Origin: Gemmatimonadales bacterium
GTDB taxonomy: Bacteria > Gemmatimonadota > Gemmatimonadetes > Gemmatimonadales > GWC2-71-9
Assembly: GCA_035601435.1 (NCBI GenBank)
Contig: DATNOH010000264.1
Span: forward strand, 1-52,680
DNA length: 52,680 nt
Reading direction: 5' to 3'
Position 1 is the stretch's first letter; each line of letters opens with the position of its first letter. The position numbers were made by a program, and so were the translations under genes. The notes below the pieces were generated by a model. That model was not told where the DNA came from. It made no database searches and saw only the letters and a list, made by a program, of their open reading frames with translations. This document shows, one piece after another, positions 3,147 through 34,564 of this stretch.

Positions 3147-3545
3147 ATGAAACCCCGTCGGCGTTATCCAATGCTGGTGCGAGCCTTCGCCTCCGCCGCG
3201 GCGCTCGCCGTTGCCGCGGAGGGCGGCGGCGTGCCGATGTGTGCCTCGCTCTTGGCCGAAGCCGCGGCGCCGTGCGCGATGCACAGCGCAGGCGTACACC
3301 GGGCGTATCACCCTGGGGTCGCGAGTGTAGTCGCGGCGTCGGCGGGCCACGACGGCTGTCATGTGGATGCCGCGAGCCCCGGCTGCGCCGCCGGCGGCAC
3401 GTGTCCGACCGGTGGGACCGCCGCCTTGGTGTGGATCAATATCCCGATCGCGCCGCGGGCGGCCTCGCGCACTGTGGCCGCGGGACCGAGTTCCGCGCTG
3501 ATTTCCTACCTCGCTCCACCACTCGCTCCTCCTCCTCAAGCCTAG
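3147..3545 (+). CDS. Small Cys/His-rich protein with an N-terminal signal-like segment (hypothetical, possibly metal-related)
   Basis: 132 aa, starting 5 nt after the copB stop. Basic N-terminus plus a hydrophobic stretch (MLVRAFASAAALAVAA). Cys/His motifs: PMCASL, PCAMHSAGVH, GHDGCHVD, PGCAAGGTCP. Third-codon positions are mostly G/C in this frame. No clear RBS. Confidence 0.5.
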   Translation: MKPRRRYPMLVRAFASAAALAVAAEGGGVPMCASLLAEAAAPCAMHSAGVHRAYHPGVASVVAASAGHDGCHVDAASPGCAAGGTCPTGGTAALVWINIPIAPRAASRTVAAGPSSALISYLAPPLAPPPQA

Positions 3546-3621
3546 TCGGCCATCCCAGATGTGGTGTGTCCGCGCCGCACGTGCGGCGCGTGCCCGACTT
3601 TGGCTTTGAGGAGATTTTGAT

Positions 3622-4890
3622 ATGCGACGGCTGTTGCTGGCGCTCATTGCTTGCGGGACGTGGCCGCTCCAAGCACAGATGCATATGCAGCATTCAATGA
3701 AGATGGATGAGAGACCTCTCGGCATCCCGGAGTCACGGATGGGGTCGGGCACGTCCTGGCTTCCCGACACTTCCCCGATGCACGCCGCCCATTTCATGGT
3801 CGGCGAGTGGACCCTGATGCTGCACGGGAGGGGCTTCGTTCAATACGACTGGCAGCAAGGTTCCCGCGGCGGCAATCAGCTCGGCGTCACCAATTGGGTC
3901 ATGGCGGCCGCGAGCCGCTCCCTCGGTGGCGGCCGGCTCGAGCTCCGCGGCATGCTCAGCGTCGAGCCGTGGACCATCGGGGCTCGAGGCTACCCGCTGC
4001 TCCTGCAGTCGGGCGAGTCCTACGGGGGAGCGCCGTTGCATGATCGGCAGCACCCGCACGACCTCTTCATGGAGCTCGCGGCACTGTACGAGCGACCCGT
4101 GGTGCGGGATCTCGCGCTGTCATTCTATGTCGCGGCGGTGGGCGAGCCGGCGGTCGGGCCGGTGGCATTCCCCCACCGACCGTCTGCCGCCGACGATCCG
4201 CTCGCCCCAATCTCCCACCATTGGCAGGACGGCACGCACATCACGTTCGGTGTGGTGACGGCGGGGGTGTTCACGCGTGGGGTTAAGCTCGAGGGCTCGT
4301 GGTTCAACGGCCGGGAGCCCGACGAGCAACGCACCGGCTTCGACTACTCGGGCCGGAAGCTCGATTCCTACAGCGTTCGGATGACGGCGAACCCGGGGCC
4401 GCGCTGGAGTGTGTCGGCCTGGTACGCCTACTTGAAGAGCCCTGAAGTGCTGCACCCGGTTGAGTCGCTCCACCGCTACGGTGCGGCGGCACTCACGACA
4501 CAGCCGTTCGGTCGGCGCGGGCGATGGGCGAGCGCGCTCATCTGGGGGGCGAACGACCAGATCGGCGCCGGGCAGCCGTCGCACAGCGTCGTGCTCGAGT
4601 CCAATCTCGACCTCGACGGGACGAACGCCGTGTTCGGTCGCGTCGAGTACGTCCGCAAGAGCGCCCAGGAGCTCGTGATCCCCTCGGTGTCACCGACCGT
4701 GGAATACGACGTGGCCGCGTTGGCGCTCGGCTACCGGCGTACGGTTGGGACCTTCGCCGGGCTCGCGGCGGGCGTGGGCGCTCGCGGATCGGTCAACCTT
4801 GTCCCGACGAGCCTCCAACCCGAGTACGGCAGCGAGACGCCGGTTGGACTGGCGGTCTACCTACAACTGCGGCCGTCCGGCGCTCATTGA
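3622..4890 (+). CDS. Secreted/outer-membrane beta-barrel-like protein with a Met/His-rich N-terminus (hypothetical)
   Basis: 422 aa. Signal peptide MRRLLLALIACGTWPLQAQ, followed by MHMQHSMKMDE. Alternating beta-strand-like composition and an aromatic-rich C-terminal part (VGLAVYLQL). Lies in the metal-resistance neighbourhood. Confidence 0.7.
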   Translation: MRRLLLALIACGTWPLQAQMHMQHSMKMDERPLGIPESRMGSGTSWLPDTSPMHAAHFMVGEWTLMLHGRGFVQYDWQQGSRGGNQLGVTNWVMAAASRSLGGGRLELRGMLSVEPWTIGARGYPLLLQSGESYGGAPLHDRQHPHDLFMELAALYERPVVRDLALSFYVAAVGEPAVGPVAFPHRPSAADDPLAPISHHWQDGTHITFGVVTAGVFTRGVKLEGSWFNGREPDEQRTGFDYSGRKLDSYSVRMTANPGPRWSVSAWYAYLKSPEVLHPVESLHRYGAAALTTQPFGRRGRWASALIWGANDQIGAGQPSHSVVLESNLDLDGTNAVFGRVEYVRKSAQELVIPSVSPTVEYDVAALALGYRRTVGTFAGLAAGVGARGSVNLVPTSLQPEYGSETPVGLAVYLQLRPSGAH

Positions 4891-22388: not shown

Positions 22389-22796
22389 TCACGCTCCCGC
22401 ATCGAACGTGTAGCACCACGCTTCACCCTCGAGCACGGTTTCTCCTGTCTGGCGCGCCACCCTGATCCTCAGCTGACACACCGGCTTCGATTCATGCACG
22501 CTCACGACCTCTGCCTCGGCGGTGATCGTGTCGCCGATGTACACCGGCGCGGTGAACTTCCAGTTTTGACTCAGGAATACGGTGCCCGGCCCGGGGAGGT
22601 CCATCGCCACCAGGGCGTGCAACAGGCCGGTGGTGAGCCCCCCTTGCACGACCAACTTCCCGAATTTGGTCCGGGCGACGAACTCGGGATCGAAGTGGAG
22701 TGGGTTGTAATCGCCCGTGAGCTGCGCGAACGCGTTCACATGGTCGGGAGTGAGCGTGAGACTGCGGGATGCCCGCTCGCCCACGGCGACCTTCAT
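22389..22796 (-). CDS. MaoC-like hotdog-fold (R)-specific enoyl-CoA hydratase/dehydratase
   Basis: Start reset to ATG 22796 (MKVAVGERASRSLTLTPDHV...). GDYNPLHFD motif. ATGA overlap with the upstream hydrolase. The stop directly abuts the convergent UbiA stop. Confidence 0.85.
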   Translation of the reverse strand: MKVAVGERASRSLTLTPDHVNAFAQLTGDYNPLHFDPEFVARTKFGKLVVQGGLTTGLLHALVAMDLPGPGTVFLSQNWKFTAPVYIGDTITAEAEVVSVHESKPVCQLRIRVARQTGETVLEGEAWCYTFDAGA

Positions 22797-23836
22797 CGAG
22801 TCCGCTCCAGCGCCGCAACGAAGGGCGCGAAGTACTGCTTCCAGACAGCCGCCGCCGTGTGCGTGCCGTGGCCTCGCGTCCGCTCGCTCGTGGGAATCAG
22901 GATATAGCGGGCCCGCGGCACTGTGGGAATCAGCCGCTCCATGAGCCCGAGCTCCGGAGGGTTGATGAAGTCGTCGGCCGAGTTGATCGCGAGCACCGGC
23001 GCGGTGATGCGATCGAGCGCCGAGCTCGGATCGTAGTCGCGCGAGGCGTCCACCTGGTACACGAGATCGTTGGCGTCGGTCTCGGCGAAGCGCGTGTCGA
23101 GCCAGCGAGCGATGTAGGCGTCGGCCGCGTCGCGCGTTGGTGCGGATCGCTGGAGCTGCAGGGGACTCGACCCCGCCGTGAACAGCAGCTGGAGTGCCGC
23201 CCGGAGGCCGCGGGGCTGGCTCGTGTAGTCGCCGCTCTTCCAATCGGGATCGGTCTTGATGTCGTCGATGATCATCCTGCGCCACATGCGGTTCCGCCCC
23301 GCGATCTGCGTCGGGATGCACGCGAGCGGGACCACCCCATCCATGACCTCCGGATACCGCTCCGCCCAGAGCCAGCTGTGCATGCAGCCCATCGATGTGC
23401 CCATCACCAGGAGCAGGTGGTCGACGTGGAGCCCGTCGGTCACGAGCCGGTATTGGGCAGCCACCATGTCCTCATAGGCGTAGCGTGGGAATCGGGCCCG
23501 CAGCCCGTCGCTCGGCTTGGAGGAGCCACCGTGTCCGATGTTATCGGGCAGGATGAGGTAGTGCGTGGCGGTATCGAGCGGCTGGCCGGGGCCGTACAGC
23601 TCGCCTGCGAATACCGGCGATAGAAACTGCCGGCCCGATCCGCCGGTGCCGTGCAGCACCAGGACGGCGTTGCGCACCGTGCCGGCGGCGTTGCGACGGG
23701 GGTGGCCCAGCGTCCGGTAGTGCAGCCGCAACTCGGGCAACACCTCGCCGCTCGCGAATCGGAAATTCTTGATGACGAAGCTGCCGGTGTCCCCCTGTGC
23801 CGCCAGCGCGGCGAGGAGGAAGAGCGCCGGGCTCAT
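22793..23836 (-). CDS. Alpha/beta hydrolase, MetX (homoserine O-acetyltransferase)-like
   Basis: 347 aa. FRFASGEVLPELRLHYRTLG...NAVLVLHGTGGSG resembles a MetX N-terminus. Nucleophile elbow GTSMGCM. Short hydrophobic N-terminus. Confidence 0.85.
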   Translation of the reverse strand: MSPALFLLAALAAQGDTGSFVIKNFRFASGEVLPELRLHYRTLGHPRRNAAGTVRNAVLVLHGTGGSGRQFLSPVFAGELYGPGQPLDTATHYLILPDNIGHGGSSKPSDGLRARFPRYAYEDMVAAQYRLVTDGLHVDHLLLVMGTSMGCMHSWLWAERYPEVMDGVVPLACIPTQIAGRNRMWRRMIIDDIKTDPDWKSGDYTSQPRGLRAALQLLFTAGSSPLQLQRSAPTRDAADAYIARWLDTRFAETDANDLVYQVDASRDYDPSSALDRITAPVLAINSADDFINPPELGLMERLIPTVPRARYILIPTSERTRGHGTHTAAAVWKQYFAPFVAALERTR

Positions 23837-24360
23837 GCCAGATAGCGCTCCCGCAGGACCGCGAGGTGGTGGCGCTCGTGGCCGGCGATGATCCAGGCGA
23901 GCGCCCGCACGCTGATCGCGTTGTTGTTAGCCGTCCCCTGGCGCGCCAGGGCCTCCGCATCGAACCCTGAGAACAGGGCGATGGTCGCTCGCCGCACCGC
24001 GTCGAACTCGGCCGCGAGGTCCTTGAGAGGTCGCGCGTCGAACCGTCCTGCCGGCACCCATGCCTTCTCGTCGAACCCCGGGAGGGGGTTCGCGTCCGCC
24101 CGGCCGAACGTCAGCGCGCGGTAGCAGAAGACGCGCTCGCTGTCCGTCAGGTGGCCGAGCACTTCCTTGATGCTCCACTTGCCCGGCGCGTAGCGATGCA
24201 GCGCCTTCGCTTCCGACAAACCGGCGAGGAGCTGCTGCGTCTCGCGCCGCTGATCCTCGAGGACCTTCAGCAGGTTCCCCTTTGGGACCCTGGAGATGTA
24301 GGTCTCGTAGTACGCCAGGTATTCGGATGGCTCGGGGCGCGGGATCGCCGCGGCCGTCAT
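23833..24360 (-). CDS. DinB-family (four-helix-bundle, metal-dependent) protein
   Basis: Start reset to ATG 24360 (MTAAAIPRPEPSEYLAYYETYI...). WSIKEVLGHLTDSERVF and IIAGHERHHLAVL supply the DinB His triad. ATGA overlaps on both sides. Confidence 0.85.
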   Translation of the reverse strand: MTAAAIPRPEPSEYLAYYETYISRVPKGNLLKVLEDQRRETQQLLAGLSEAKALHRYAPGKWSIKEVLGHLTDSERVFCYRALTFGRADANPLPGFDEKAWVPAGRFDARPLKDLAAEFDAVRRATIALFSGFDAEALARQGTANNNAISVRALAWIIAGHERHHLAVLRERYLA

Positions 24361-24812
24361 GCGACCCTCCGCGGGCCCTTGGGCGTGCTCGCCTTTCCTT
24401 TGGCGGGTCCCGGGAACTTGGCGAGCCGCGCTTGGGCGTCCGGCATCTTCATGATGACCTGCTCCAGCTTCTCGAGGTAGCCCGGGTTGTTGAGTAGTGC
24501 CCGCACCTCGGTGAGGAACGGCCGGAGCCGCGCGTACACCATGATGTGCTCGCCGTTCGCGTCCGCGAACATCTGCTCGTCGATGGCGCCGTGTAGCACG
24601 AGCGTGGCCGCCATCCCCCAATAGGTGGTCACCATCCGGTAGAACGCGCTGCGCTTTCCGCGATACGCTTCGAGCACGTCCTCGGCCGTGCGGGGGCGGA
24701 ACTCCTCGCGAAACCAGGCCCGCGCCTTGCGCAGCAACGGCTCGCGGCGCATGTCGTACAGCTTGAGCAGCAGGTCGGCACTCTCGTATTTCGTGTTCAC
24801 GGGTGGCTCCAT
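24357..24812 (-). CDS. Hypothetical protein (helical, no recognised domain)
   Basis: Track ORF 24357..24827 starts at a TTG. I prefer ATG 24812 (MEPPVNTKYESADLLLKLYDMRREPLL...). Natural, non-Arg-rich composition. Sits inside the coupled operon. Confidence 0.65.
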   Translation of the reverse strand: MEPPVNTKYESADLLLKLYDMRREPLLRKARAWFREEFRPRTAEDVLEAYRGKRSAFYRMVTTYWGMAATLVLHGAIDEQMFADANGEHIMVYARLRPFLTEVRALLNNPGYLEKLEQVIMKMPDAQARLAKFPGPAKGKASTPKGPRRVA

Positions 24813-24831: not shown

Positions 24832-25194
24832 CTATGCGCGCGCCTGCACCGCGGCGACCCAGGCCCGCCAGGTCTCTTCCCCTGGGCCGACGGTCAGCTG
24901 CTGCTGGTGGCGGACCAGCGGCATCCGCAGGAGCAGGGGCTCCAGGGTGAGCTTGTCGAGCCAGCGTTCCTCGGAGAACAGGGCCGACTTGAGGCCGAGC
25001 TCGGTGAAGCGCTTCGCGTTGCGGTCGATCAGGCTCTGCACCCCGAACTGCTGCGCGAAACGCCGTAGCTCGCCGAGCGACGCGGCGCGCTCGTTCAGAT
25101 CCACGAAGTGCGTCTTGATACGACGCTCGGCGAAGAAGCGGAGCGCGGCCCGGGTGTCGGCGCTCTTGCGGACGCCGAAGATCTGGACTTCCAC
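24832..25194 (-). CDS. ArsC/Spx/YffB-family thioredoxin-fold protein lacking any cysteine
   Basis: 120 aa with a GTG start. VQIFGVRKSADTRAALRFFAERRI aligns with the IYGIKNCDTCRKA region of the ArsC/Spx family, but the Cys positions are Ser/Ala. I find no Cys in the whole protein. Its start overlaps the upstream stop by 1 nt (TAGTG). Confidence 0.8.
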   Translation of the reverse strand: MEVQIFGVRKSADTRAALRFFAERRIKTHFVDLNERAASLGELRRFAQQFGVQSLIDRNAKRFTELGLKSALFSEERWLDKLTLEPLLLRMPLVRHQQQLTVGPGEETWRAWVAAVQARA

Positions 25195-25976
25195 TAGCTG
25201 CCGCTCGAGAACCGCACCGCACCCAGGTCCACCAGGCCCTGCAGCGTGGCTTCGAGGTCCTCGACCCCGAGTCCCGCGACCCCGGCAATCTCCCCGAGGG
25301 TCCGCGTCCCGTCCGCGAGCTGCACGACGGCCGCCACATTTTCGTCACTGCGCGCGACCGCGACGCGTCCGTGCGCGGACCGCGCGACCAGCAGCTTCGT
25401 GCGCCGCTCCGGCGCCTGCGGCACGTCGGTCCACGGCTGGAGCAGTTTCGGCAGGATGCTCGGGAGATCGAAGGACAACTCCAAGAGCACCGTCCCTTCA
25501 ACGGTCGCCGGACGGAACCGCTCCCCGCTCCCCGCTCCCCCAGACGATGCGCCGTCCCGCCACACCCGCGGTCCCGCTTCGACGACCATCATCGCCTCTT
25601 CGTACCGCAGGAGATCGGCGAGATAGGGCACGGGCGCCTGGGCCGCCGCAACGTGAGCGGTCACGAGTCGCGCCACCGCTGCCGCCGTGTCGCGGCTGCC
25701 CAGAATGATCCCGGGGAGGAGCGCTTCGAAGGCGGGAGACTTGAGGATGCCCTCGGGCGCGCGGCCCGTGACGCGTGCGAGGGCGCGCGAGTACTTGAAG
25801 AAGTTGACGATGCGCTCGTGATAGAAATGGCGCGCCAAAAACCGCGCGTACCGCTCGACGCGGTCCGGATCGGCGAGCGCCCGGCGCCGCCACTCGAGCG
25901 AAGCGCGAAACGGTGCATCGGCGAGCGCGCGGATCACAGCGTCCTGCAGGGCGCGATCGTCCGGCAAACCGGTCAC
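25194..25976 (-). CDS. Hypothetical protein with a PqqD/RRE-like C-terminal segment; candidate partner of the DUF692 enzyme
   Basis: GTG start at 25976 in a GTGA overlap with the upstream stop (VTGLPDDRALQDAVIRAL...). The rest of track ORF 25194..26606 overlaps the upstream gene and is rejected. The N-terminal helical part (RYARFLARHFYHERIVNFF) is loosely reminiscent of DUF2063. The C-terminus VVQLADGTRTLGEIAGVAGLGVEDLEATLQGLVDLGAV resembles PqqD-type peptide-binding domains. Confidence 0.6.
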   Translation of the reverse strand: MTGLPDDRALQDAVIRALADAPFRASLEWRRRALADPDRVERYARFLARHFYHERIVNFFKYSRALARVTGRAPEGILKSPAFEALLPGIILGSRDTAAAVARLVTAHVAAAQAPVPYLADLLRYEEAMMVVEAGPRVWRDGASSGGAGSGERFRPATVEGTVLLELSFDLPSILPKLLQPWTDVPQAPERRTKLLVARSAHGRVAVARSDENVAAVVQLADGTRTLGEIAGVAGLGVEDLEATLQGLVDLGAVRFSSGS

Positions 25977-27175
25977 GGCGGGTTCGAGGGGGCGCAGGGG
26001 CGGAGCCGCACTACGGCCGTCCGCCCGTCGGAGACGACCTTCTGGCCGGAGACGTTGCGTCCCTCGGTGACCGCGCCGGGAAGGCGCATGTAGTCCAGCA
26101 GATCGCCGCATCCGCTCGCCTCGAGATCGTGTACCACGCGGTCTCGCTCCCAATCGATGTGCGACTCGATGCGATGGGTCGCTTGCGGCTCCCACGGCTT
26201 GAAAATCACCCCGACATCCTTGTTCGCGGCGCCGACCCAGACGAGCGAGAGACTGTCGAGCAGCCAGATTCGGATGTGATGACGAATCCGGACGTTCGGG
26301 CCCGCCAGCTCGTACGCGAGGTCCTGGGGCCGTCCCTCGAAGTACTGCGTGCTCACCGGAGCGGTGATCGCTGGCCTGCTCGCGATCGCGGCGGTCACCT
26401 CCCGCGTGACGCTGAGGAAAGACCGCTTCTGCGTCGGCAGCCAGCTGGCCGCCCGAAACGCGCTGTCGATCTCGGCGGCCGTACCCAGCAAGAGCACGTT
26501 GAACGGGTCGCCCGGCACGTCCCCTGTGCGGTTCTCGGAGCGGGGAACGAACTTCGGCAAGTCCGGCATCTCGGTCAGCTCGCGATGTGCCGTCAGGGGG
26601 TCGCACCGGTCCGGACCCGGGAGAACGAGGGGCTGGGTGAGTCGGATGCCGCCCGTTTCACCCGCGAGAATGCGCATCGGAGGCCCCCGGCGGATGAGCG
26701 AGAAGCCGCCGAGCACCGCTACAACCCCGGCGTCGAGGTCGGCCGCAGCCGCGACGCCTGCTGGCATGAGCTTCCTGCCGACGCCGCCGATGGACGTCCT
26801 GCCGCTGTAGACGAGCCCGGAATCGGTAACCGCGCCCGGCTTGGCGTACTCGAGCGTGTCGAGCAGACCGGAGATCGCGACCCAACGCGACGGGCGCACT
26901 TCCAGCGAGTCGAACGCCAGCCCCAGCCGGCCGTGCCGACCGAACCGCCCCCCGCCCTTGGAGATCACGATTCGGCCCTTCGCGCGGACGTAAGGCGGGA
27001 CCAGGACGCAGGAATCCTGCACCAACGCCCCCATCGTCTGCACCAGCACCCCTGTCCCCACGGTGTCCCGGCCGCTCGTGATGCGCTGCACAAAACGGAT
27101 CGGTATGCGCGTGCCCGCCGGCACCACGACGTCGGCCGAGAGCAGCGTGAGCAGCGTGATCGCGATCGCCCTCAC
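25973..27175 (-). CDS. Secreted protein with an LssY_C-like C-terminal domain
   Basis: GTG start at 27175 in a GTGA overlap with the DUF692 stop. Signal-like N-terminus VRAIAITLLTLLSA. C-terminal half DPFNVLLLGTAAEIDSAFRAASWLP...QYFEGRPQDLAYEL...RIRHHIRIW resembles the LssY C-terminal domain. Confidence 0.7.
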   Translation of the reverse strand: MRAIAITLLTLLSADVVVPAGTRIPIRFVQRITSGRDTVGTGVLVQTMGALVQDSCVLVPPYVRAKGRIVISKGGGRFGRHGRLGLAFDSLEVRPSRWVAISGLLDTLEYAKPGAVTDSGLVYSGRTSIGGVGRKLMPAGVAAAADLDAGVVAVLGGFSLIRRGPPMRILAGETGGIRLTQPLVLPGPDRCDPLTAHRELTEMPDLPKFVPRSENRTGDVPGDPFNVLLLGTAAEIDSAFRAASWLPTQKRSFLSVTREVTAAIASRPAITAPVSTQYFEGRPQDLAYELAGPNVRIRHHIRIWLLDSLSLVWVGAANKDVGVIFKPWEPQATHRIESHIDWERDRVVHDLEASGCGDLLDYMRLPGAVTEGRNVSGQKVVSDGRTAVVRLRPCAPSNPP

Positions 27176-27948
27176 AAGGCCTCCCGAATTCGCTCCACGC
27201 TGCGAAACAGCACCTCCGCCTTCAAGGAAGGCGAGAACGCGTCGAACGTGACGGCCTGGGCGCGGGGGCACTGGCTCACCGCATGGGCGGCGAAGGCAAG
27301 CATCTCGTCCGAGGGCTCGGCCGGCCCGATCCACGGACCCCCGAGGTCGTCGTCATGCTCGACGCCGGCGACGTGCAGCTCGACGACGTGCTCGAGCGGG
27401 AACTCCGCGAGCCAGCGCTCGGGCGCCATGTCGTGGTAGTGCGCCTCGAGCCACACGTGCGGCAGATCGAGCAGGAACCCGGCGCCCGTCGCCTCGAAGA
27501 AGCGACGCAGCCATACCGGCTCCGGCAGCTGACTCGCCTTGACGTCGAAGAACCCGGGGATGTTCTCCATCACGAGCGGCTGATCGAGGCGCGCCTGGAG
27601 CGCGCAGGCGTTACGGACGAAGCGCTCGAGGAACGCGTCCGTGTAGAGCGGCGGGAACACGTAGTTGAGACTGTACCCGCCGTCCTCGGTGTGGAGACAC
27701 TGAAAATGCTCGGCGACCCAGGGCGAATGATACAGGTCGGCGAGCGCGCGGGCACGCTGGATGGAGCGCTCGTCGAGCGGCTCGGAGAGCTGCCCCAAGT
27801 AGTCGTGCAGCAAGAGAGTGTAGCGCTCTTTGATCGCGGGCCACCACGGGTCCCTCGCCGCGGGAGGATCGGCCATGGCCAAGTGGTCGATCCCCTCCGC
27901 CCGGGCGAGTTCCGCTCCCAGGTGAGGGTTATAAAACGCCCCGACCAT
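27172..27948 (-). CDS. DUF692-family protein (multinuclear non-haem iron oxidase, MNIO; MbnB/TglH-like)
   Basis: 258 aa from ATG 27948 (the track start 27951 is a TTG). TIM-barrel-like family pattern: LLLHDYLGQLSEP, SPWVAEHFQCLHTEDG...LNYVFPPLYT, PLVMENIPGFF, GFLLDLPHVWLEAH, VVELHVAGVEHD, AVTFDAF. Confidence 0.85.
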   Translation of the reverse strand: MVGAFYNPHLGAELARAEGIDHLAMADPPAARDPWWPAIKERYTLLLHDYLGQLSEPLDERSIQRARALADLYHSPWVAEHFQCLHTEDGGYSLNYVFPPLYTDAFLERFVRNACALQARLDQPLVMENIPGFFDVKASQLPEPVWLRRFFEATGAGFLLDLPHVWLEAHYHDMAPERWLAEFPLEHVVELHVAGVEHDDDLGGPWIGPAEPSDEMLAFAAHAVSQCPRAQAVTFDAFSPSLKAEVLFRSVERIREAL

Positions 27949-29078
27949 CAAGTCCCCGTTGCGCGCCAGTCTAGTAACCCGCGTTGGGTGAGTTGGTCAC
28001 AAAAGACCTTGACCTGCGCCGCCACCATGGGGGACGCGTGAGCGTCCGTCCACAGGGCGGCGATCGTCTCCGCGCTCGTTGTGCCGTCCAGTCGCTCGAC
28101 GATAAACCGCTCACGCTCGCCCCAGGTGGCCGCCTCGCGCTTCAAATCATCGCTAGCGCCCGCTGGCGGAAACGCCGCCGCCACGATCTCGTCGATTTCC
28201 TGCAGTATGCTTGGGGCCAGGTGTTGGGTTCCTGCAAGGTTCTGGTCGACCTGCTCGCTGCTCCGCGCCCCCGCCAGGACGATACTCACGCCCGGGTGCG
28301 CGAGCACCCAAGCAAGCGCAAGACCCGACAGCGGCATGTCGAGCTCCCGGGCGATCGAGGCGAGCCGCTCGATCGCCGTCCGCCGGCGCTCGAACTCTCT
28401 GCCCTTGAACCAATAGATGTTGCGTCGGTGGTCGGCGGCGGTGAACTCAGGGAGCGCGGTGTACTTCCCGCTCAGCAGTCCCGCGGCGAGGGGCCGGTAT
28501 GCCAGGAACGCAATCCCACGCTCCCGGCACAGCGGCAGCTCCCGCTGCTCCACGTCCCGATCGAACAGGTTGTAGGCCCCCTGGTACGCGACCACGGGCG
28601 CGATCTCCAGCGCACGCGCGAGCTGGCGGTGGGTGGCATTACAGAGCCCCACCCCCAGGGCCTTTCCCTCCTCCTGCAGCGCGTGCAGTTGCTCGAGCCG
28701 CCCCTCCCAGCCTTCGAGCGCTTCGTGCAGCTGAATCAGATCCACATAGTCTGTCGCCAGCCGCCGCAGCGATGCCTCGAGGGCGCGGCGCGGATCGTCG
28801 CGCGGGCCGACCTTGGTGGCGATGGCGACGCGATCGCGGTCGGCCTGGAGGGCGCGACCCAGCAGGATTTCGGACGCGCCGTCGCCGTACGTAGGGGCGG
28901 TGTCGAAGAAGGTGATGCCGCGCTCGAGGGCGCGGCGGACGGTCGCGAGGCGGTCGGCTTCGGCCGAGGCAGCGCCCCACGCCGTGCCCCCCACCGCCCA
29001 GGCCCCGAACCCCAGGCGGGGTCCAGAGGTCAGGAAACGCAGCGGGGGCCCGACGTCTGTCCGGGCCCCCGGGCGCAT
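27948..29078 (-). CDS. Aldo/keto reductase fused to a ~75-aa PqqD/RRE-like C-terminal extension
   Basis: 376 aa. AKR core with the catalytic tetrad contexts FFDTAPTYGDG (D, Y), IATKVG (K) and IQLHEA (H). The core ends near ILQEIDEIV (about residue 300). The extra tail ERFIVERLDGTTSAETIAALWTDAHASPMVAAQVKVFCDQLTQRGLLD follows. GGGAG RBS 13 nt after the small ORF's stop. Confidence 0.85.
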   Translation of the reverse strand: MRPGARTDVGPPLRFLTSGPRLGFGAWAVGGTAWGAASAEADRLATVRRALERGITFFDTAPTYGDGASEILLGRALQADRDRVAIATKVGPRDDPRRALEASLRRLATDYVDLIQLHEALEGWEGRLEQLHALQEEGKALGVGLCNATHRQLARALEIAPVVAYQGAYNLFDRDVEQRELPLCRERGIAFLAYRPLAAGLLSGKYTALPEFTAADHRRNIYWFKGREFERRRTAIERLASIARELDMPLSGLALAWVLAHPGVSIVLAGARSSEQVDQNLAGTQHLAPSILQEIDEIVAAAFPPAGASDDLKREAATWGERERFIVERLDGTTSAETIAALWTDAHASPMVAAQVKVFCDQLTQRGLLDWRATGT

Positions 29079-29091
29079 CTGAACCGCTCCC

Positions 29092-29184
29092 TTAGGAGTG
29101 GCAGGTGGGCACCAGCTCCGCCGTCTCGACGATCTCGGGACGATGACAGCTGGGCACGAGCTCCTGCATCTCGACGATCTGCAT
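29092..29184 (-). CDS. Unannotated 30-aa ORF, candidate RiPP precursor peptide with two VP[ST]CH units
   Basis: My reverse-strand read is GAAGGAGGA TGT ATG CAG ATC GTC GAG ATG CAG GAG CTC GTG CCC AGC TGT CAT CGT CCC GAG ATC GTC GAG ACG GCG GAG CTG GTG CCC ACC TGC CAC TCC TAA. This translates to MQIVEMQELVPSCHRPEIVETAELVPTCHS. Strong RBS at 29188-29196. The stop lies 13 nt before the next gene. The ORF is below the size cut-off of the ORF track. Confidence 0.6.
   Translation of the reverse strand: MQIVEMQELVPSCHRPEIVETAELVPTCHS
29098..29181 (-). repeat. Tandem 39-nt coding repeat (period 45 nt) inside the small ORF
   Basis: Unit 1 (29143-29181) encodes QIVEMQELVPSCH. Unit 2 (29098-29136) encodes EIVETAELVPTCH. 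Conserved residues L, C and H use different synonymous codons in the two units (CTC/CTG, TGT/TGC, CAT/CAC). Confidence 0.7.
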
Positions 29185-29230
29185 ACATCCTCCTTCGCTA
29201 GGATACATCAGGAAGACGGCTATTGTGGGA

Positions 29231-29259
29231 ATCCTACGGGTTGCCGTCACACCCGTCAA
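29231..29259 (-). promoter_or_regulatory. Candidate sigma70-type promoter for the peptide/DUF692 operon
   Basis: On the minus strand: TTGACG (29254-29259), a 17-nt spacer, then TAGGAT (29231-29236), about 45 nt upstream of the peptide ATG. An ACGGGT/ACCCGT inverted repeat (29236-29241 and 29251-29256) lies in the spacer. Assigned by pattern only. Confidence 0.35.
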
Positions 29260-29280
29260 CCGGTAATTCTACAACCCTGC

Positions 29281-30219
29281 ATGATTCTGATTCATACGCT
29301 GTTGACAGAGAACGCACTCGCGGACGAATTCGTTTCCGCCTTCCATGAGAGGCGGCTGCCGGAGAAGTTCTTCTATTGGTTCCCCCTGTCGGTGCGCGCA
29401 TGGCTGGCCCTGTGCTCCGATGGCGCGTATCGCAACTTCGTGCGCTCGCGCTCGTTGATCGCGAGCTCCGGCGCGGAGCTGGCGCGCTTGTTTCCAGTCG
29501 CCCCGCTGGAAGTGGTGAGCCTCGGCGCGGGCCAGGGCGACAAGGACCTGCTGCTGCTCGACGCACTACGTGTGCGTGGCGCCCGGGTGTCGTACGTCCC
29601 CGTGGACACGAGCCAGGCCCTGCTGGAGATGGCGTGCGCAGGGGCGCTCGCTGCTGGCTTCCCAGCCCAGGGGATCAAGGCGGACTTCACGAACCCGGAC
29701 CACCTGAAGGCCCTCGCCGCCGAGCCCGAGACGCCGCCCCGGCTCGTGCTGCTCATCGGGAACACGCTTGGCGCCTTCGACCCCATCGCCGAAGCGCGCG
29801 AGCTGGCGCGGCTGCTGCGGCCGGGGGACGCGCTCCTGGTGGACGGCGAGCTGTACGCCGGCGATGCCACGGTAGCCGGCTACGACAATCCCCTGAACCG
29901 CCGCTTCGCTTGGGCGCCGCTCAACGCCGTGGGCATTCGCGACGCAGACGGCGAGTTGGTGTTCGAAGCGGCCGACGATCCGCGCCTTCCCGGCCTGCAT
30001 CTGATCCCCAAGCACTTCCGGGCGAGCCGGGACGTAGAGGCCCTCCTCGGGGGCGAGGCCCTGCGCCTGGCGCGCGGCGAGCGGCTCGCCATGAATCACT
30101 CGTATAAGTACGCCGCGGACACTTTCCTTCGGATTCTCTCCGAGGCCGGGCTCGCGGAGCGCTGGCAGGGACGGAGCGACGACCAGCGGTTTCTCATGAC
30201 TCTGGTCGCTCCTCGGTGA
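29281..30219 (+). CDS. EgtD-fold (Methyltransf_33, histidine N-alpha-methyltransferase-like) SAM-dependent methyltransferase, divergent member
   Basis: Start reset to ATG 29281 (MILIHTLLTENALADEF...). Blocks match EgtD as I recall it: LPEKFFYW, VVSLGAGQGDKDLLLLDAL, YVPVDTSQ, ADFTNPDHL, LLIGNTLGAFDP, LRPGDALLVDGEL, YDNPLNRRFAWAPLNAVG, MNHSYKY. The EYYPTRTE-type loop is not conserved. No RBS; the gene may be leaderless. Confidence 0.8.
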   Translation: MILIHTLLTENALADEFVSAFHERRLPEKFFYWFPLSVRAWLALCSDGAYRNFVRSRSLIASSGAELARLFPVAPLEVVSLGAGQGDKDLLLLDALRVRGARVSYVPVDTSQALLEMACAGALAAGFPAQGIKADFTNPDHLKALAAEPETPPRLVLLIGNTLGAFDPIAEARELARLLRPGDALLVDGELYAGDATVAGYDNPLNRRFAWAPLNAVGIRDADGELVFEAADDPRLPGLHLIPKHFRASRDVEALLGGEALRLARGERLAMNHSYKYAADTFLRILSEAGLAERWQGRSDDQRFLMTLVAPR

Positions 30220-30968
30220 CCCCGGCGCTCGAAGTACGCGGGCTCGGCTACCGATTGCCGGGAACGGGGAAAGGGGACTCGGGAAACGGACGCTTCCTCG
30301 TGCGGGACGTCTCTTTTTCCGTCGGCGCCGGAGAGACGTTGGTACTGCTGGGCCGGAGCGGCTCCGGGAAGACCACTACCCTCAAGCTCATCAACCGCCT
30401 GCTCGAGCCGACTTCCGGCGACGTGCGGGTGGCGGGGGAGCGCGCGGCCGACCTGCCGGTGACCCGTTTGCGGCGCCGGATCGGCTACGTGATTCAGGAG
30501 GTGGGCCTGTTCCCCCATTTCACGGTGGAGCGGAACGTGGGGCTCGTCCCACGGCTCGACGCGTGGTCGCCGGCGCGCATCGCCGCGCGGGTGCGCGAGC
30601 TGCTCGCGCTCGTGGGGCTCGACCCCGACACCTTCGTGCGGCGCTATCCGCACGAGTTGTCCGGGGGGCAGCGGCAGCGCGTGGGCGTGGCGCGCGCCCT
30701 GGCCGCCGACCCGCCGCTGCTCCTGCTCGATGAGCCGTTCGGCGCGCTCGATCCGATCACGCGGGTGGAGCTGCAGCGCGAGTTCGCGGCGCTCGAGGGG
30801 CGGATCGGCAAAGCCATGGTCTTCGTCACGCACGATGTGCGCGAGGGGCTGCTGCTGGGCACCCACATCGGGCTCATGCTGCAGGGTCGGCTCGCGTTTC
30901 TCGGCACGCCTGACGACTTCCGTCGGTCGGACAACCCGGAATGCCGGGCGTTCATGGCCGCGGCATGA
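30216..30968 (+). CDS. ABC transporter ATP-binding protein (osmoprotectant/betaine OpuB/OpuC type)
   Basis: 250 aa. Walker A GRSGSGKTT, signature LSGGQRQRVGVARAL, Walker B LLLLDEPF. GTGA overlap with the methyltransferase stop. Confidence 0.9.
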   Translation: MTPALEVRGLGYRLPGTGKGDSGNGRFLVRDVSFSVGAGETLVLLGRSGSGKTTTLKLINRLLEPTSGDVRVAGERAADLPVTRLRRRIGYVIQEVGLFPHFTVERNVGLVPRLDAWSPARIAARVRELLALVGLDPDTFVRRYPHELSGGQRQRVGVARALAADPPLLLLDEPFGALDPITRVELQREFAALEGRIGKAMVFVTHDVREGLLLGTHIGLMLQGRLAFLGTPDDFRRSDNPECRAFMAAA

Positions 30969-31603
30969 GTCTGTTGAGCTTCTACGCGCGTAACTCCCAG
31001 GAAGTCCTGGGGCTCGTGGGCCAGCACGTGTATCTGGTGGCGATCTCCACGGGCGCGGCCATCGTAATCGGCGTGCCGCTGGGTGTCTTGCTCACGCGGC
31101 GGCCGGGGTGGCGGGGCCCCGTGCTGGGTGTGGCCAATGTATTCCAGACGGTGCCGAGTCTCGCCCTGTTCGGGTTCCTCATTCCCCTGCCCTTCATCGG
31201 CGGCATCGGCGCGAGGACGGCTATCGTCGCGCTCGTCCTGTACGCCCTCCTGCCCATCGTTCGCAACACCTATGAGGGGATCGCCGGCGTGGACCCGGCG
31301 GTGCGCGAGGCGGGGCGCGGGATGGGCATGACCGACTGGCAGCTGCTGGCACAGGTCGAATTGCCGCTCGGCTTCGGCGTGATCCTGGCAGGGGTGCGGG
31401 TCGCGACGGTCGTAAGCGTAGGCACGGCGACGATCGCGGCGGCCATCGGCGCGGGCGGTTTGGGCGTGTACATCTTCCGGGGCGTGGCGGTGGTGGACGA
31501 TACGCTGATCCTCGCCGGGGCGCTGCCGGCCGCGCTGATGGCGCTCGCGGCGGACGGGCTGCTGGGAGTCGCGGAGCGGCGGTTCGCGTGGCGGGCGAAA
31601 TGA
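30965..31603 (+). CDS. ABC transporter permease (betaine/choline OpuBB/OpuCB type)
   Basis: Start set to ATG 30965 (ATGA overlap; MSLLSFYARNSQEVLGLVGQH...). EAA-like loop VREAGRGMGMTDWQLL. Five to six TM helices. Confidence 0.9.
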   Translation: MSLLSFYARNSQEVLGLVGQHVYLVAISTGAAIVIGVPLGVLLTRRPGWRGPVLGVANVFQTVPSLALFGFLIPLPFIGGIGARTAIVALVLYALLPIVRNTYEGIAGVDPAVREAGRGMGMTDWQLLAQVELPLGFGVILAGVRVATVVSVGTATIAAAIGAGGLGVYIFRGVAVVDDTLILAGALPAALMALAADGLLGVAERRFAWRAK

Positions 31604-32478
31604 GTCCTCACCCCCTGTCCCGCTGCCTCGGTCTGCTCGCGCTGCTACTCACCGGATGCGCTCAGCGCGACCGGATCGTGGTGGGCTCCAAGAACTTCAC
31701 CGAGTCCGATCTGCTGGGGGAGATCGTGGCGCAGCAAATCGAGCGGCGCACGGCGCTCCCGGTGGAGCGACGCTTCCACCTGGGCGGCACGTTCGTGTGC
31801 CACCAGGCCATCACGTCGGGCCAAATCGATCTCTACGTCGAGTACACGGGGACCGCCTACACCGCCGTATTGAAGCGCGCGCCCGTCGCCGATCGCGACA
31901 GCGTCTATCGGACGGTCGCGCGCGACTATGCGCAGCGGTTCGGGCTCGCGTGGGGCGAGCCGTTCGGCTTCAACAACACGTTCGCCATCACCGTGCGGCG
32001 GCGCGACGCGACGCGCGACGGGCTGAAGCACATCTCCGACCTGGCGCGCGTCGCCCCGCGCTGGAAGGCCGGATTCGGTTACGAGTTCCTGGAGCGCGCC
32101 GACGGGTTCCGCGGACTCGCGAGTGTGTACGGACTGCGGTTCGCCGCTCCACCCACCGCGATGGACCTGGGGCTGACGTATCGGGCCCTGGCGGAGGGGA
32201 AGGTGGACGTGATCGCCGGTAACTCGACGGACGGCCAGATCCAGGCCCTGGACCTCCTGGTCCTGGAAGACGACCGGCACTACTTCCCGCCGTATGAAGC
32301 TGCCCCGGTCATCCGCCAGGCAGCGCTCACACGACACCCCGAGATCGCCGCGGCCCTGGCTCAGCTCGCGGGCAAGATTTCGGACGCCGAGATGCGACGG
32401 CTCAACGCCCTCGCGGACGTCGAGCACCGGGACATCGCGACCATCGCGCGCGACTGGCTGCGCGCCACCCTGCCGTGA
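31600..32478 (+). CDS. Betaine-type ABC substrate-binding lipoprotein (OpuBC/OpuCC-like)
   Basis: Start set to ATG 31600 (ATGA overlap). Lipobox LLTGC. IVVGSKNFTESDLLGEIVAQ, IDLYVEYTGTAY and LEDDRHYFPPYEAAPV are typical of glycine-betaine-family binding proteins. Confidence 0.9.
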   Translation: MSPHPLSRCLGLLALLLTGCAQRDRIVVGSKNFTESDLLGEIVAQQIERRTALPVERRFHLGGTFVCHQAITSGQIDLYVEYTGTAYTAVLKRAPVADRDSVYRTVARDYAQRFGLAWGEPFGFNNTFAITVRRRDATRDGLKHISDLARVAPRWKAGFGYEFLERADGFRGLASVYGLRFAAPPTAMDLGLTYRALAEGKVDVIAGNSTDGQIQALDLLVLEDDRHYFPPYEAAPVIRQAALTRHPEIAAALAQLAGKISDAEMRRLNALADVEHRDIATIARDWLRATLP

Positions 32479-33338
32479 GGGTGGGGCCTCGCACGCAGCT
32501 GGTGCTTGCCGCCGCGTGCTTTTCGACGGCGGGGGCCGCGATCAAGTGGACCAACTTCGGCGCGTGGCAGGTTGCGGCGGTGCGGGCGCTCGTGGCCCTC
32601 GTGGCGATCCTCGCGCTGATTCCCGAAGCGCGCAGCCGTTGGAGCTGGCGCGTGGCGCTGGTGGGCGTGGCCTACGCGGCAGCGGGGCTGCTGTTCGTGT
32701 TCGCGAACAAGCTGACCACGGCGGCCAACACCGTATTCCTGCAGGCGACGAACCCGCTGTTCGTGGTCGCGCTCGCGCCATGGCTGTTGCGCGAGCGCGT
32801 GCGAGGGGCGGACCTCGCGTTCATGGGTGTCCTGGCCGCAGGCCTGGGGTTGCTGTTCGTCGGCGGGCGGCGACACTTCGCGACCGCGCCGGACCCCTTC
32901 CTCGGCAACGTGCTGGCGGCGGGGAGCGCGGTGGCATGGGCGTTCACGGTCACGGGGTACCGCTGGCTGGCGCGCCAACGAGGCGCCGACCATGGCCCCA
33001 TCGCGGCCGCGGCGGCGTGCGGCAACCTGTTCGTGTTCCTGGTGTGCCTGCCGGGGGCGCTCCCGCTCGCGGCTGGGCGTGCCACCGACTGGCTGATCGT
33101 GGTCTATCTCGGCGTGTTCCAGCTCGGCCTCGCCTACGTGTTCCTGTCGCGCGCCATCACCCGGGTACCGGCACTCGAGGCCTCGCTGTTCCTCTTGGTC
33201 GAGCCGGTGCTGAGTCCGGTGTGGGCCTGGCTTGCGCACGGCGAGACGCCGGGCCCGCTCGCGGTAGTCGGGGGAGCCGTCATCCTGACGGCGACGGCCC
33301 TCAAAGCTTGGACCGACAACCAAATGGTGGCGGCGTGA
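32475..33338 (+). CDS. EamA/DMT-family transporter
   Basis: 287 aa, ten hydrophobic helices in two EamA-like halves. GTGA overlap with the binding-protein stop. Confidence 0.85.
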   Translation: MRVGPRTQLVLAAACFSTAGAAIKWTNFGAWQVAAVRALVALVAILALIPEARSRWSWRVALVGVAYAAAGLLFVFANKLTTAANTVFLQATNPLFVVALAPWLLRERVRGADLAFMGVLAAGLGLLFVGGRRHFATAPDPFLGNVLAAGSAVAWAFTVTGYRWLARQRGADHGPIAAAAACGNLFVFLVCLPGALPLAAGRATDWLIVVYLGVFQLGLAYVFLSRAITRVPALEASLFLLVEPVLSPVWAWLAHGETPGPLAVVGGAVILTATALKAWTDNQMVAA

Positions 33339-34564
33339 GCTCCAGTGCGGTCATCCGGACCTACTACATCATCACAGGACTCTTCAACCTGGCGATGTCG
33401 CTCATCTGGGGCATCGATACGCTCTTCAAGATGAGCGCCGGGCTCGACATCCAGCAGGTGCTGCTCACGAACGCCGCGTTCACCGTCGGATCGATGGTGT
33501 TCGAGGTCCCCACCGGCGTCGTGGCCGACACGTTGGGCCGACGCGTATCTCTGCTCCTCTGCCTTGGCACGCTGTTCGTGACCACGCTCCTCTATGTGAC
33601 CATCGCGTGGCGCGGCTGGGGATTCTCGGCGTTCGTGTGGGTCTCAGTGCTCCTCGGACTGGGCTACACGTTCTACACCGGCGCGGTGGACGCTTGGCTG
33701 GTCGACGCCCTCAAAGCCACGGGCTACACGGAACCGCTCGAGCGGGTGTTCTCTCGGGGACAGATGTTGTTCGGGGCCGCGATGCTCGCGGGCACCATCG
33801 GCGGGGGGCTGCTGGGCCAGATCCGCTTGGACATCCCGTACGTAGTGCGAGCCGCGCTGGTCGTACCGCTGTTCTGGGTGGCGTGGTTCCGGATGCCGGA
33901 GGTCGGGTTCACGCCGCGCGCGTTGCAGCTGCGGCGCGTGCCCGCCGAGCTGCGGCGCGTGTTTGTCGAGGGGCTGCGGTACGGACTGAGCAATCCCGTC
34001 GTCCGGCCCGTGATGTTCGCGTCGTTCGTCTCGATGAGCTTCATGATCTTCGGCTTCTACAGCTGGCAGCGTTACTTCCTGGATCTCTTAGGACGGAATC
34101 TCGTCTGGGTGGATGGCGTGATCAGCGCGCTGGTCGGGTTGAGCCTGATCGTGGGCAACGCGCTCGTCGCGCCCCTCTCGCGCGTGGTGCGGACGCGGAC
34201 CGGAGTGCTGATGGTCTCGGTGGCGATCCAGGCGGTGCTGGCGGTGGCGTGCGGCCTGCTCACGAACTTTTTCGTGGTCGTGTCGCTGTACCTGCTGTAC
34301 GGCGTGGCCGTCGGGCTCGCGCTGCCCGTGAAGCAGGCCTATCTCAACGCCCACATCCCCTCGGCCCAACGAGCGACGATCATCTCGCTCGACTCGATGT
34401 TCGCGAGCAGTGGCGGCGCGCTCGGGCAGACCGTGTGGGGCTGGGTCGCGCGCACGCGCTCGATCGGCACGGCGTGGGCGTGGAGCGGGCTGACGCTGGT
34501 GCTCGGGATTCCACTCTACTGGTTGGCGCGCAGGAGAGACCAGCTTCACGACGCGATAGACTGA
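33335..34564 (+). CDS. MFS transporter
   Basis: GTG start at 33335 (GTGA overlap with the EamA stop; VSSSAVIRTYYIITGLFNL...). Motif A GVVADTLGRRVSLL. Twelve predicted TM helices. The first 347 codons of track ORF 32294..34564 overlap other genes and are rejected. Confidence 0.85.
   Translation: MSSSAVIRTYYIITGLFNLAMSLIWGIDTLFKMSAGLDIQQVLLTNAAFTVGSMVFEVPTGVVADTLGRRVSLLLCLGTLFVTTLLYVTIAWRGWGFSAFVWVSVLLGLGYTFYTGAVDAWLVDALKATGYTEPLERVFSRGQMLFGAAMLAGTIGGGLLGQIRLDIPYVVRAALVVPLFWVAWFRMPEVGFTPRALQLRRVPAELRRVFVEGLRYGLSNPVVRPVMFASFVSMSFMIFGFYSWQRYFLDLLGRNLVWVDGVISALVGLSLIVGNALVAPLSRVVRTRTGVLMVSVAIQAVLAVACGLLTNFFVVVSLYLLYGVAVGLALPVKQAYLNAHIPSAQRATIISLDSMFASSGGALGQTVWGWVARTRSIGTAWAWSGLTLVLGIPLYWLARRRDQLHDAID

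Follow-up and report, generated by a model that had tools for sequence, protein, structure and literature searches.

Enzymes of the MNIO/DUF692 family (oxidative enzymes that depend on multinuclear non-heme iron) act on ribosomal peptides, and their substrate classes undergo differing reactions: oxazolone-thioamide formation, 5-thiooxazole formation, carbon excision, aminopyruvate formation, N-Calpha cleavage, and ortho-hydroxylation. Here, we analyze a stretch of 52,680 nucleotides (hereafter the window; contig DATNOH010000264.1 of assembly GCA_035601435.1) from a Gemmatimonadales bacterium, in which a 30-residue open reading frame (ORF) with two tandem Cys-His units lies on the minus strand at the head of an operon that encodes an MNIO. 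With a probability of roughly 0.78, we consider that this ORF encodes a leaderless multi-cassette precursor of a RiPP (a peptide that is ribosomally synthesized and then post-translationally modified), the substrate of an undescribed MNIO-dependent subfamily. In other words, the MNIO-dependent RiPP class is known, whereas the precursor architecture, the core motif, and the set of tailoring enzymes appear to be new.

The features that carry this reading are the following (positions are those of the window).

29188..29196, minus strand: ribosome-binding site (RBS) GAAGGAGGA, whose GGAGG core is kept in the orthologues listed
29092..29184, minus strand: putative precursor peptide gene, 30 residues and a stop codon, product MQIVEMQELVPSCHRPEIVETAELVPTCHS, called from the sequence as read and its orthologues
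29143..29181, minus strand: cassette 1, QIVEMQELVPSCH, with the putative recognition stretch IVEMQEL and the core PSCH
29098..29136, minus strand: cassette 2, EIVETAELVPTCH, with the putative recognition stretch IVETAEL and the core PTCH, one residue before the C-terminus
27948..29078, minus strand: aldo-keto reductase (AKR), 376 residues (PF00248, 1e-61)
about 27951-28106, minus strand: PqqD-like helical tail of the AKR, resembling a RiPP recognition element (RRE), a C-terminal extension of about 55 residues (PqqD, 0.006)
27172..27948, minus strand: MNIO/DUF692 enzyme, 258 residues (PF05114, 7e-27), whose start overlaps the stop codon of the AKR gene (ATGA)
25194..25976, minus strand: MNIO partner, 260 residues, ApyI-like, with a winged-helix/PqqD-like C-terminus
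29281..30219, plus strand: EgtD-like S-adenosylmethionine (SAM) methyltransferase (Methyltransf_33), 312 residues, divergent from the peptide gene and linked to it in three phyla

The Closest Described Systems

The aminopyruvatide system (ApyA/ApyH/ApyI) provides the best NCBIfam matches to both members of the enzyme pair: ApyH to the MNIO (3.6e-27, followed by BufB at 2.3e-24) and ApyI to the partner, the ApyI model being matched by 12 of 15 diverse members of the partner family (best 6.5e-8) and the HvfC RRE model by two. The two systems also have in common a precursor without a signal peptide, a partner that is not of the DUF2063 kind (PME-type 2, PMC12452194), and a modified site, presumed in our case, at or near the C-terminus. 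However, ApyH acts on a C-terminal Asp, whereas the peptide here has the core P-[ST]-C-H, ends in ...CH[S/T/A], and carries no C-terminal Asp. The P450 and B12-radical-SAM genes are not in the operon here, which has genes for the EgtD-like methyltransferase and the AKR instead; the precursor is repetitive and leaderless; and the scores fall far under the equivalog cut-offs (95 against 400 bits for the MNIO, and 24 against 200 for the partner). The partner has no match in Pfam, DUF2063 included, and a profile search of it against the PDB sequences gave weak helix-turn-helix matches (E 0.03). It has been reported that MNIO precursors lacking signal peptides go with non-DUF2063 "PME-type 2" partners, a description that the 260-residue partner fits as judged from its sequence, and that the MNIOs with such partners characterized so far each differ in their chemistry (PMC12452194).

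The closest solved structure to the MNIO is 8HCI (1.6e-9), deposited as a "DUF692 family protein", which we take to be TglH of the pearlin/3-thiaglutamate system (TglA, TglH-TglI). Six residues that are invariant in the MNIO family here, H49, H82, E129, D162, H165, and H193, align with the conserved His, Glu, and Asp residues of 8HCI and are presumed to be metal ligands. Further likenesses to the pearlin system would be Cys as the target residue, the requirement for a partner, and a peptide able to scaffold a small sulfur metabolite. On the contrary, no LanB/PEARL-like aminoacyl-tRNA-dependent enzyme is found among the called genes of the locus, and the Cys that PEARL adds at the C-terminus there is here encoded, internal, followed by His, and repeated.

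In the captophorins (oxazolin, fontiphorin, and bufferin; Cu-binding 5-thiooxazole peptides made by MNIO-PME1 pairs), Cys motifs also occur in variable repeats (EGKCG in that case) and the MNIO and partner genes are also adjacent; metal binding is plausible for both, and BufB is the second-best NCBIfam match to the MNIO. The captophorin systems, however, have Sec signal peptides, DUF2063 (PME-type 1) partners, and DoxX, whereas neither a signal peptide nor DUF2063, DUF2282, a BUF_6/12Cys signature, or an EGKCG signature is present here, and the MNIO reaches only 86 of the 310 bits required for BufB and 49 of the 360 required for HvfB. They are known from the Pseudomonadota, and the family described here from the Gemmatimonadota, Acidobacteriota, and Actinomycetota. 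Methanobactin (MbnA/MbnBC) is more distant: the partner bears no MbnC signature, and the best matches of the MNIO are ApyH and BufB, not MbnB. The match to ChrH amounts to 17 bits against a cut-off of 600. To judge from these scores, the MNIO has relatives among the characterized subfamilies but belongs to none of them. Because it lies outside all equivalogs, and because the MNIOs with PME-type 2 partners each differ, its chemistry is not deducible from homology.

For the methyltransferase, the only solved relative is EgtD of ergothioneine biosynthesis (1.3e-17 with the family profile), with which it shares the Pfam family Methyltransf_33, although its score against the EgtD equivalog TIGR03438 is 66.5 bits where the cut-off is 290.9. 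EgtD holds the carboxylate of His by Tyr56, Tyr206, and Ser284, while Tyr39 contacts the C-alpha and Asn166 binds the alpha-amino group (PMC8593015). In the family studied here, Y39, Y56, Y206, and S284 of EgtD are kept as the invariant Y32, Y50, Y201, and S274, whereas the N166 position is Ala165 and the E282 position is Asn or Ser. The retention of the carboxylate residues together with the loss of the alpha-amino ligand suggests that this enzyme may hold the carboxylate of a C-terminal His whose nitrogen is still in a peptide bond. It should be mentioned that EgtB, EgtC, and EgtE are all missing from the operon and that the gene is linked here to a ribosomal peptide and an MNIO.

The cyanobactin precursors of the PatE type are multi-core peptides with a recognition sequence in every cassette. 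The peptide here resembles them in its tandem cassettes, each with a short putative recognition element and a short core, and in a copy number that varies among relatives. The enzymes are unrelated, however, with no cyanobactin protease or heterocyclase in our system, and the peptide differs from PatE in having no N-terminal leader and in having cores that are nearly identical rather than hypervariable. What the locus has in common with MNIO-dependent RiPP systems in general is a conserved, co-oriented ORF, an MNIO with its presumed ligands (at the level of the alignment), a partner gene, and an invariant Cys core. A literature search found no description of a matching precursor family, although most subscription journals lay outside its coverage and an earlier description is therefore possible, and a survey of the MNIO landscape (PMC12452194) contains no matching precursor group.

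The Peptide Gene and Its Conservation

On the minus strand, the RBS GAAGGAGGA is followed by three nucleotides (TGT) and then by ATG CAG ATC GTC ... TGC CAC TCC TAA, with the ATG at 29184-29182 and the TAA at 29094-29092. The stop codon lies 13 nt from the next ATG (29078), which is preceded by GGGAG. All these elements are as given in a preliminary description of the locus, which had also recognized the two tandem 13-residue units (residues 2-14 and 17-29); on re-reading, these share nine of 13 residues and 31 of 39 nucleotides, and they differ in their synonymous codons for Leu (CTC/CTG), Cys (TGT/TGC), and His (CAT/CAC). These cassette-specific codons are themselves kept in the distinct orthologous DNAs, as TGT (44/51) and CAT (50/51) in unit 1 and as TGC (49/51) and CAC (48/51) in unit 2, and the Ser codon of unit 1 (AGC) is one step from the Thr codon of unit 2 (ACC). 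The lack of a signal peptide and of a separate leader, also noted at that time, holds as well: the N-terminus reads MQIVEMQE and is acidic, with no hydrophobic segment. That the ORF was "unannotated" is correct in so far as it has no functional annotation, but public gene callers do call it. The exact 30-residue product is present on 847 public contigs, unnamed in its own row, and where other members of its cluster are named, the name is "hypothetical protein". Many public gene calls (P0121-P0130; P0256, P0258, P0262, P0263, and P0271) prolong the ORF upstream to 35-74 residues by the use of alternative starts (LTGVTATRRI..., for example) that lie 5' of the conserved RBS, and the added stretches are not conserved. 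With a 65-residue, four-unit relative as the query, a protein search matched only ten over-extended calls of this peptide. The window was also scanned for Rfam families and tRNAs, and none was found.

To follow the ORF across genomes, we collected loci with genes for proteins related to the downstream DUF692 protein, taking one genome per species: 80 with the DUF692 protein of the window as the query and 80 with an acidobacterial relative. In total, 105 loci (three of them duplicates) from the Gemmatimonadota, Actinomycetota, and Acidobacteriota were analyzed. In 97 of the 105, the MNIO gene is preceded on its own strand by a small ORF with the motif of the peptide; of the remaining eight, seven are on contigs too short to reach the expected position, and L039 is rearranged. 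Among the 61 two-unit orthologues, which comprise 51 distinct DNAs and 25 peptides, not a single frameshift or internal stop was found. Their variable sites fall at codon positions 1, 2, and 3 in the proportion 13/8/25, and their pooled pN/pS is 0.23. GGAGG stands 5-9 nt 5' of the ATG in the loci listed, while the 5' region otherwise drifts. P[STAG]CH is found only three times in the six reading frames of the window, twice inside the peptide ORF. The rarity of this motif, together with the preserved frame and the conserved GGAGG, places the ORF beyond chance. The 30-residue ORF is thus a genuine gene that is strongly conserved, with purifying selection acting on its protein sequence. All the fetched loci (approximately 100) derive from metagenome-assembled genomes (MAGs), and none from a cultured isolate. 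Two loci, L090 from a record titled as a Chlamydiota MAG and P0098 from one named Myxococcaceae, are nearly identical to the Terriglobales or Gemmatimonadales type, and their assignments are probably binning errors rather than cases of horizontal transfer.

The repeated unit comprises 12 residues with the consensus [IVL][VI]-E-[TA]-x-E-L-[AVEQ]-P-[TS]-C-H. P, C, and H are present without exception in all the 54 distinct units, and E(-8), E(-5), and L(-4) in 49, 47, and 47 of them, respectively. There are two units in 63 loci, three in 29, and four in five: two in the Gemmatimonadales, three in the Acidobacteriota (Terriglobales) and two actinomycetotal MAGs, and four in the Gemmatimonadaceae and one actinomycetotal MAG. 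Which linker follows His depends on the lineage (RPE in one, none, as in H-VVE, in another, and xxFK in a third), and the last core is always 0-1 residue from the C-terminus, the final His being the last residue in the Acidobacteriota and the penultimate one elsewhere. The peptides are acidic, and none has a signal peptide or a separate leader. From the pattern of conservation, the acidic/hydrophobic stretch [IV][VI]ExxEL of each cassette is probably its recognition sequence. Five variants of the peptide were compared with Pfam-A and NCBIfam release 20 at E values up to 10, and this gave only noise (MoaC and zinc ribbons). The motif, which had not been recognized from known MNIO substrates, matches no Pfam or NCBIfam precursor model.

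A Gene Set Common to Three Phyla

Four genes are common to the three phyla: those for the EgtD-like methyltransferase, the peptide, the MNIO, and the ApyI-like partner. In the acidobacterial-query set, all 24 acidobacterial loci with upstream DNA have the four together. The methyltransferase gene, which starts 96 nt from the peptide ATG on the opposite strand, is occasionally undetected or not adjacent (L034, L043, L100, and L107, for example). The peptide gene is obligately linked to those of the MNIO, the partner, and the methyltransferase. The linkage to the methyltransferase goes beyond the preliminary description, which had proposed that the peptide is the substrate of the nearby MNIO. 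Comparative evidence now supports this proposal: the MNIO and its partner accompany the peptide in 97 of the 105 loci, the peptide has two to four units with the invariant P-[ST]-C-H, and the partner gene that follows the MNIO gene is homologous to that of the RiPP-binding ApyI.

The AKR is present in the Gemmatimonadota and Actinomycetota and absent from all the acidobacterial loci examined and from a few Gemmatimonadales loci, an identity and a distribution that had not been noticed before. Its tail is likely to be a peptide-recognition element, on the evidence of profile matches and a structural model. PqqD is the only Pfam family that it matches (10 of 15 tails, best E 2.9e-5, under the gathering score), and hhalign places it co-linear with the C-terminal domain of the partner (E 0.008). 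A single-sequence AlphaFold2 model of the tail (predicted local distance difference test, pLDDT, 78) is a helical bundle, the top Foldseek match of which is PqqD 3G2B, at a non-significant E of 2.6; a profile search against the PDB sequences gave nothing meaningful. In L039 (1411-1698), the AKR is reduced to a free-standing ORF of 95 residues that corresponds exactly to this tail and lies directly before the MNIO gene, which suggests that the tail is a separable module. L039 is also the only informative locus without the peptide; it has unrelated DNA upstream and could be a rearrangement or an assembly chimera.

Neighboring Genes and the Promoter Region

In the window, the minus-strand operon continues beyond these genes, its order being peptide, AKR, MNIO, LssY_C, partner, ArsC/Spx-like, DUF4760, DinB_2/YfiT-like, MetX-like, and MaoC, and most of its genes overlap in their stop and start codons. 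On the plus strand, further genes follow that of the methyltransferase, each of those listed overlapping its predecessor by 4 nt.

25973..27175, minus strand: LssY_C-domain protein, 400 residues, with a hydrophobic N-terminus, located between the MNIO and partner genes and confined to a part of the Gemmatimonadales
24832-25194, minus strand: ArsC/Spx-like protein
24357-24812, minus strand: DUF4760 protein
23833-24360, minus strand: DinB_2/YfiT-like thiol transferase
22793-23836, minus strand: MetX-like alpha/beta hydrolase (PRK06489 equivalog, 521 bits)
22389-22796, minus strand: MaoC dehydratase
30216-30968, plus strand: ProV-like ATPase (overlapping the methyltransferase gene)
30965-31603, plus strand: ChoW/ProW-like permease
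31600-32478, plus strand: OsmF-like lipoprotein, a binding protein of the glycine-betaine family
32475-33338, plus strand: EamA transporter
33335-34564, plus strand: major facilitator superfamily (MFS) efflux pump

Only loci like that of the window have LssY_C, ArsC, DUF4760, DinB_2, MaoC, and the hydrolase in the downstream position, and in another subset (L050-L071) the MetX-like hydrolase is between the AKR and the MNIO; the accessory genes are mobile within the cluster. The restriction of LssY_C to a subset also extends the preliminary description, and we regard its product as an accessory or a passenger. The alpha/beta hydrolase was considered as a RiPP peptidase and set aside, being MetX-like and therefore rather an acyltransferase or esterase, and not universal. 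The transporter genes are translationally coupled to the methyltransferase gene only in the Gemmatimonadales, and not in the Actinomycetota or Acidobacteriota. In one acidobacterial subclade (L079, at 3291-4614, and L085-L089), the EgtD-like gene is followed by genes for a MarR-family regulator and for a Methyltransf_31/UbiE-like methyltransferase of class I, and the partner gene by one for a single-domain response regulator.

Two features were recognized between the divergent operons.

29231..29259, minus strand: sigma-70-like promoter TTGACG-17-TAGGAT (a single site, against 0.0 expected when the region is shuffled)
29225-29270, intergenic: block of approximately 40 nt, TTACCGGTTGACGGGTGTGACGGCAACCCGTAGG, at least 90% conserved in 61 Gemmatimonadales loci, with diverging flanks

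The block contains the -35 and -10 hexamers of the promoter, whose spacer carries a 6-nt inverted repeat (ACGGGT/ACCCGT at 29236-29241 and 29251-29256), and the palindrome ACCGGT (29259-29264) also lies within it. The block could serve as an operator through which the divergent operons are regulated.

A Proposed Pathway

From the comparisons above, we infer the modification, its target residue (Cys, probably with the adjacent His, and then methylation), the order of the steps, and the product. First, the ApyI-like partner would bind [IV][VI]ExxEL through its winged-helix C-terminal domain and present the core to the MNIO. Second, the iron cluster of the MNIO would oxidize the invariant Cys using O2, and the adjacent invariant His may react too, or may form an N,S metal-binding site with the Cys-derived sulfur, one per cassette. 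Third, the EgtD-like methyltransferase would methylate the product, perhaps by anchoring the carboxylate of the C-terminal His with its nitrogen acylated; such anchoring would account for the retained carboxylate triad, for the loss of the amino ligand, and for a last His whose place at the C-terminus is constant. Fourth, in the lineages that have it, the AKR, tethered by its PqqD-like tail, would reduce a carbonyl arising from the second step.

Several points weigh against this pathway. Both the translation and the modification of the peptide are predictions from sequence. The MNIO and its partner score far under every curated equivalog cut-off, so that no known chemistry can be transferred to them by homology. 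An AlphaFold2 model of the partner, built with 36 close homologues, has a pLDDT of 51.6, and its Foldseek search against the PDB gave nothing below E=1, the sole likeness being approximately 50 residues of winged-helix similarity above that value. As for the AKR tail, the PqqD-like call comes from sub-threshold matches, and the model has only helices, without the beta-strands by which canonical RREs bind leaders. The role proposed for the methyltransferase is drawn from five aligned residues. Finally, the invariant gene set contains neither a protease nor a dedicated exporter.

Alternative Explanations

It is conceivable, though we think it unlikely, that the peptide is a sacrificial scaffold, the cassettes of which supply Cys sulfur and His imidazole. 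The MNIO would join or transfer these, a small sulfur-containing His derivative would be released and N-methylated by the EgtD-like enzyme to an ergothioneine- or ovothiol-like betaine, and the ATP-binding cassette (ABC) transporter and the EamA and MFS pumps would move the betaine. TglH uses a peptide as the scaffold on which it forms a small molecule, and ApyH and TglH (presumably the 8HCI entry), the nearest characterized MNIOs, both act on C-terminal residues. The invariant adjacency of Cys and His agrees with such a scaffold, as does the last His, which in every lineage is the C-terminal residue or its neighbor. The EgtD-like methyltransferase, with its free-carboxylate-binding residues kept, is the sole tailoring enzyme found in all three phyla, and in the Gemmatimonadales it is coupled to the genes of an OsmF/ProW/ProV-type quaternary-amine transporter, EamA, and an MFS pump. 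In the window, a DinB_2/YfiT-like thiol transferase and an ArsC-like protein are encoded in the same operon, and precursors in which each cassette gives rise to one small product typically vary freely in their number of cassettes. However, the invariant set has no protease, C-S lyase, or pyridoxal-phosphate-dependent enzyme, the linkage to the transporter is confined to one order, and no flanking cleavage site is common to the phyla (RPE, VVE, or xxFK follows His). The replacement of EgtD Asn166 by Ala speaks against a free amino acid being N-alpha-methylated in the manner of EgtD, the methyltransferase scores 66 bits where the EgtD cut-off is 291, and no link between MNIOs and thiohistidines was found in the literature searched.

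A second alternative, which we consider quite improbable, is that the peptide is translated but remains unmodified, either as a small acidic Cys/His metal-binding micro-protein or as a regulatory leader (attenuator) peptide. The CH pairs are plausible direct ligands of Cu, Zn, or Ni; the ORF is at the 5' end of the operon, 13 nt ahead of the next gene; and the conserved palindromic promoter element suggests regulated expression. Nevertheless, a translational leader does not need a 12-residue unit whose amino acids are conserved across phyla while its copy number varies, and attenuation is rejected because no terminator-like or attenuator hairpin was found 3' of the ORF. The obligate linkage to an MNIO and to a partner of a RiPP-binding type also speaks for modification, since such partners are described, in the literature read, only with MNIOs and RiPP precursors, and a second enzyme, the AKR, has a PqqD-like tail of its own.

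The last alternative, that the ORF is no gene but a chance frame in GC-rich DNA, or owes its conservation to an N-terminally extended methyltransferase frame opposite it (on the plus strand, the frame is open from 29098 to 30219 in the window, and no antisense stop falls within the peptide ORF in any of the 61 orthologues), can practically be dismissed: the extension is open across the intergenic region up to the methyltransferase start in only 20 of 61 loci, the methyltransferase alignment begins at M29281 in all phyla, the variable sites are third codon positions of the peptide and hence first positions of the antisense frame, a conserved promoter and RBS separate the two genes, and the Acidobacteriota keep the peptide despite other spacing and another sequence at the DNA level.

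Implications

A leaderless multi-cassette RiPP precursor, the reading that we prefer, would add several features that are unreported for MNIO RiPPs in the literature searched: a precursor built solely of recognition-plus-core cassettes whose Cys-His target is invariant, an EgtD-like methyltransferase that is obligatory, and an AKR with what appears to be its own peptide-recognition tail. The family has been overlooked so far probably because all the fetched loci come from MAGs; it is common in uncultured soil bacteria and lets leaderless substrate recognition by MNIO-partner pairs be tested directly. The four invariant genes make a compact system, the reconstitution of which in Escherichia coli should be practical. 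If, instead, the cassettes proved to be a scaffold for a small His derivative, with the Cys sulfur coupled or transferred by the MNIO to the imidazole of the adjacent His, antioxidants of the ergothioneine or ovothiol kind would have a third origin, templated by a peptide and dependent on an MNIO, in soil phyla that are abundant and uncultured. The family may also bring to light Cys/His chemistry that is new, or a new metabolite able to bind metals or to undergo redox reactions.

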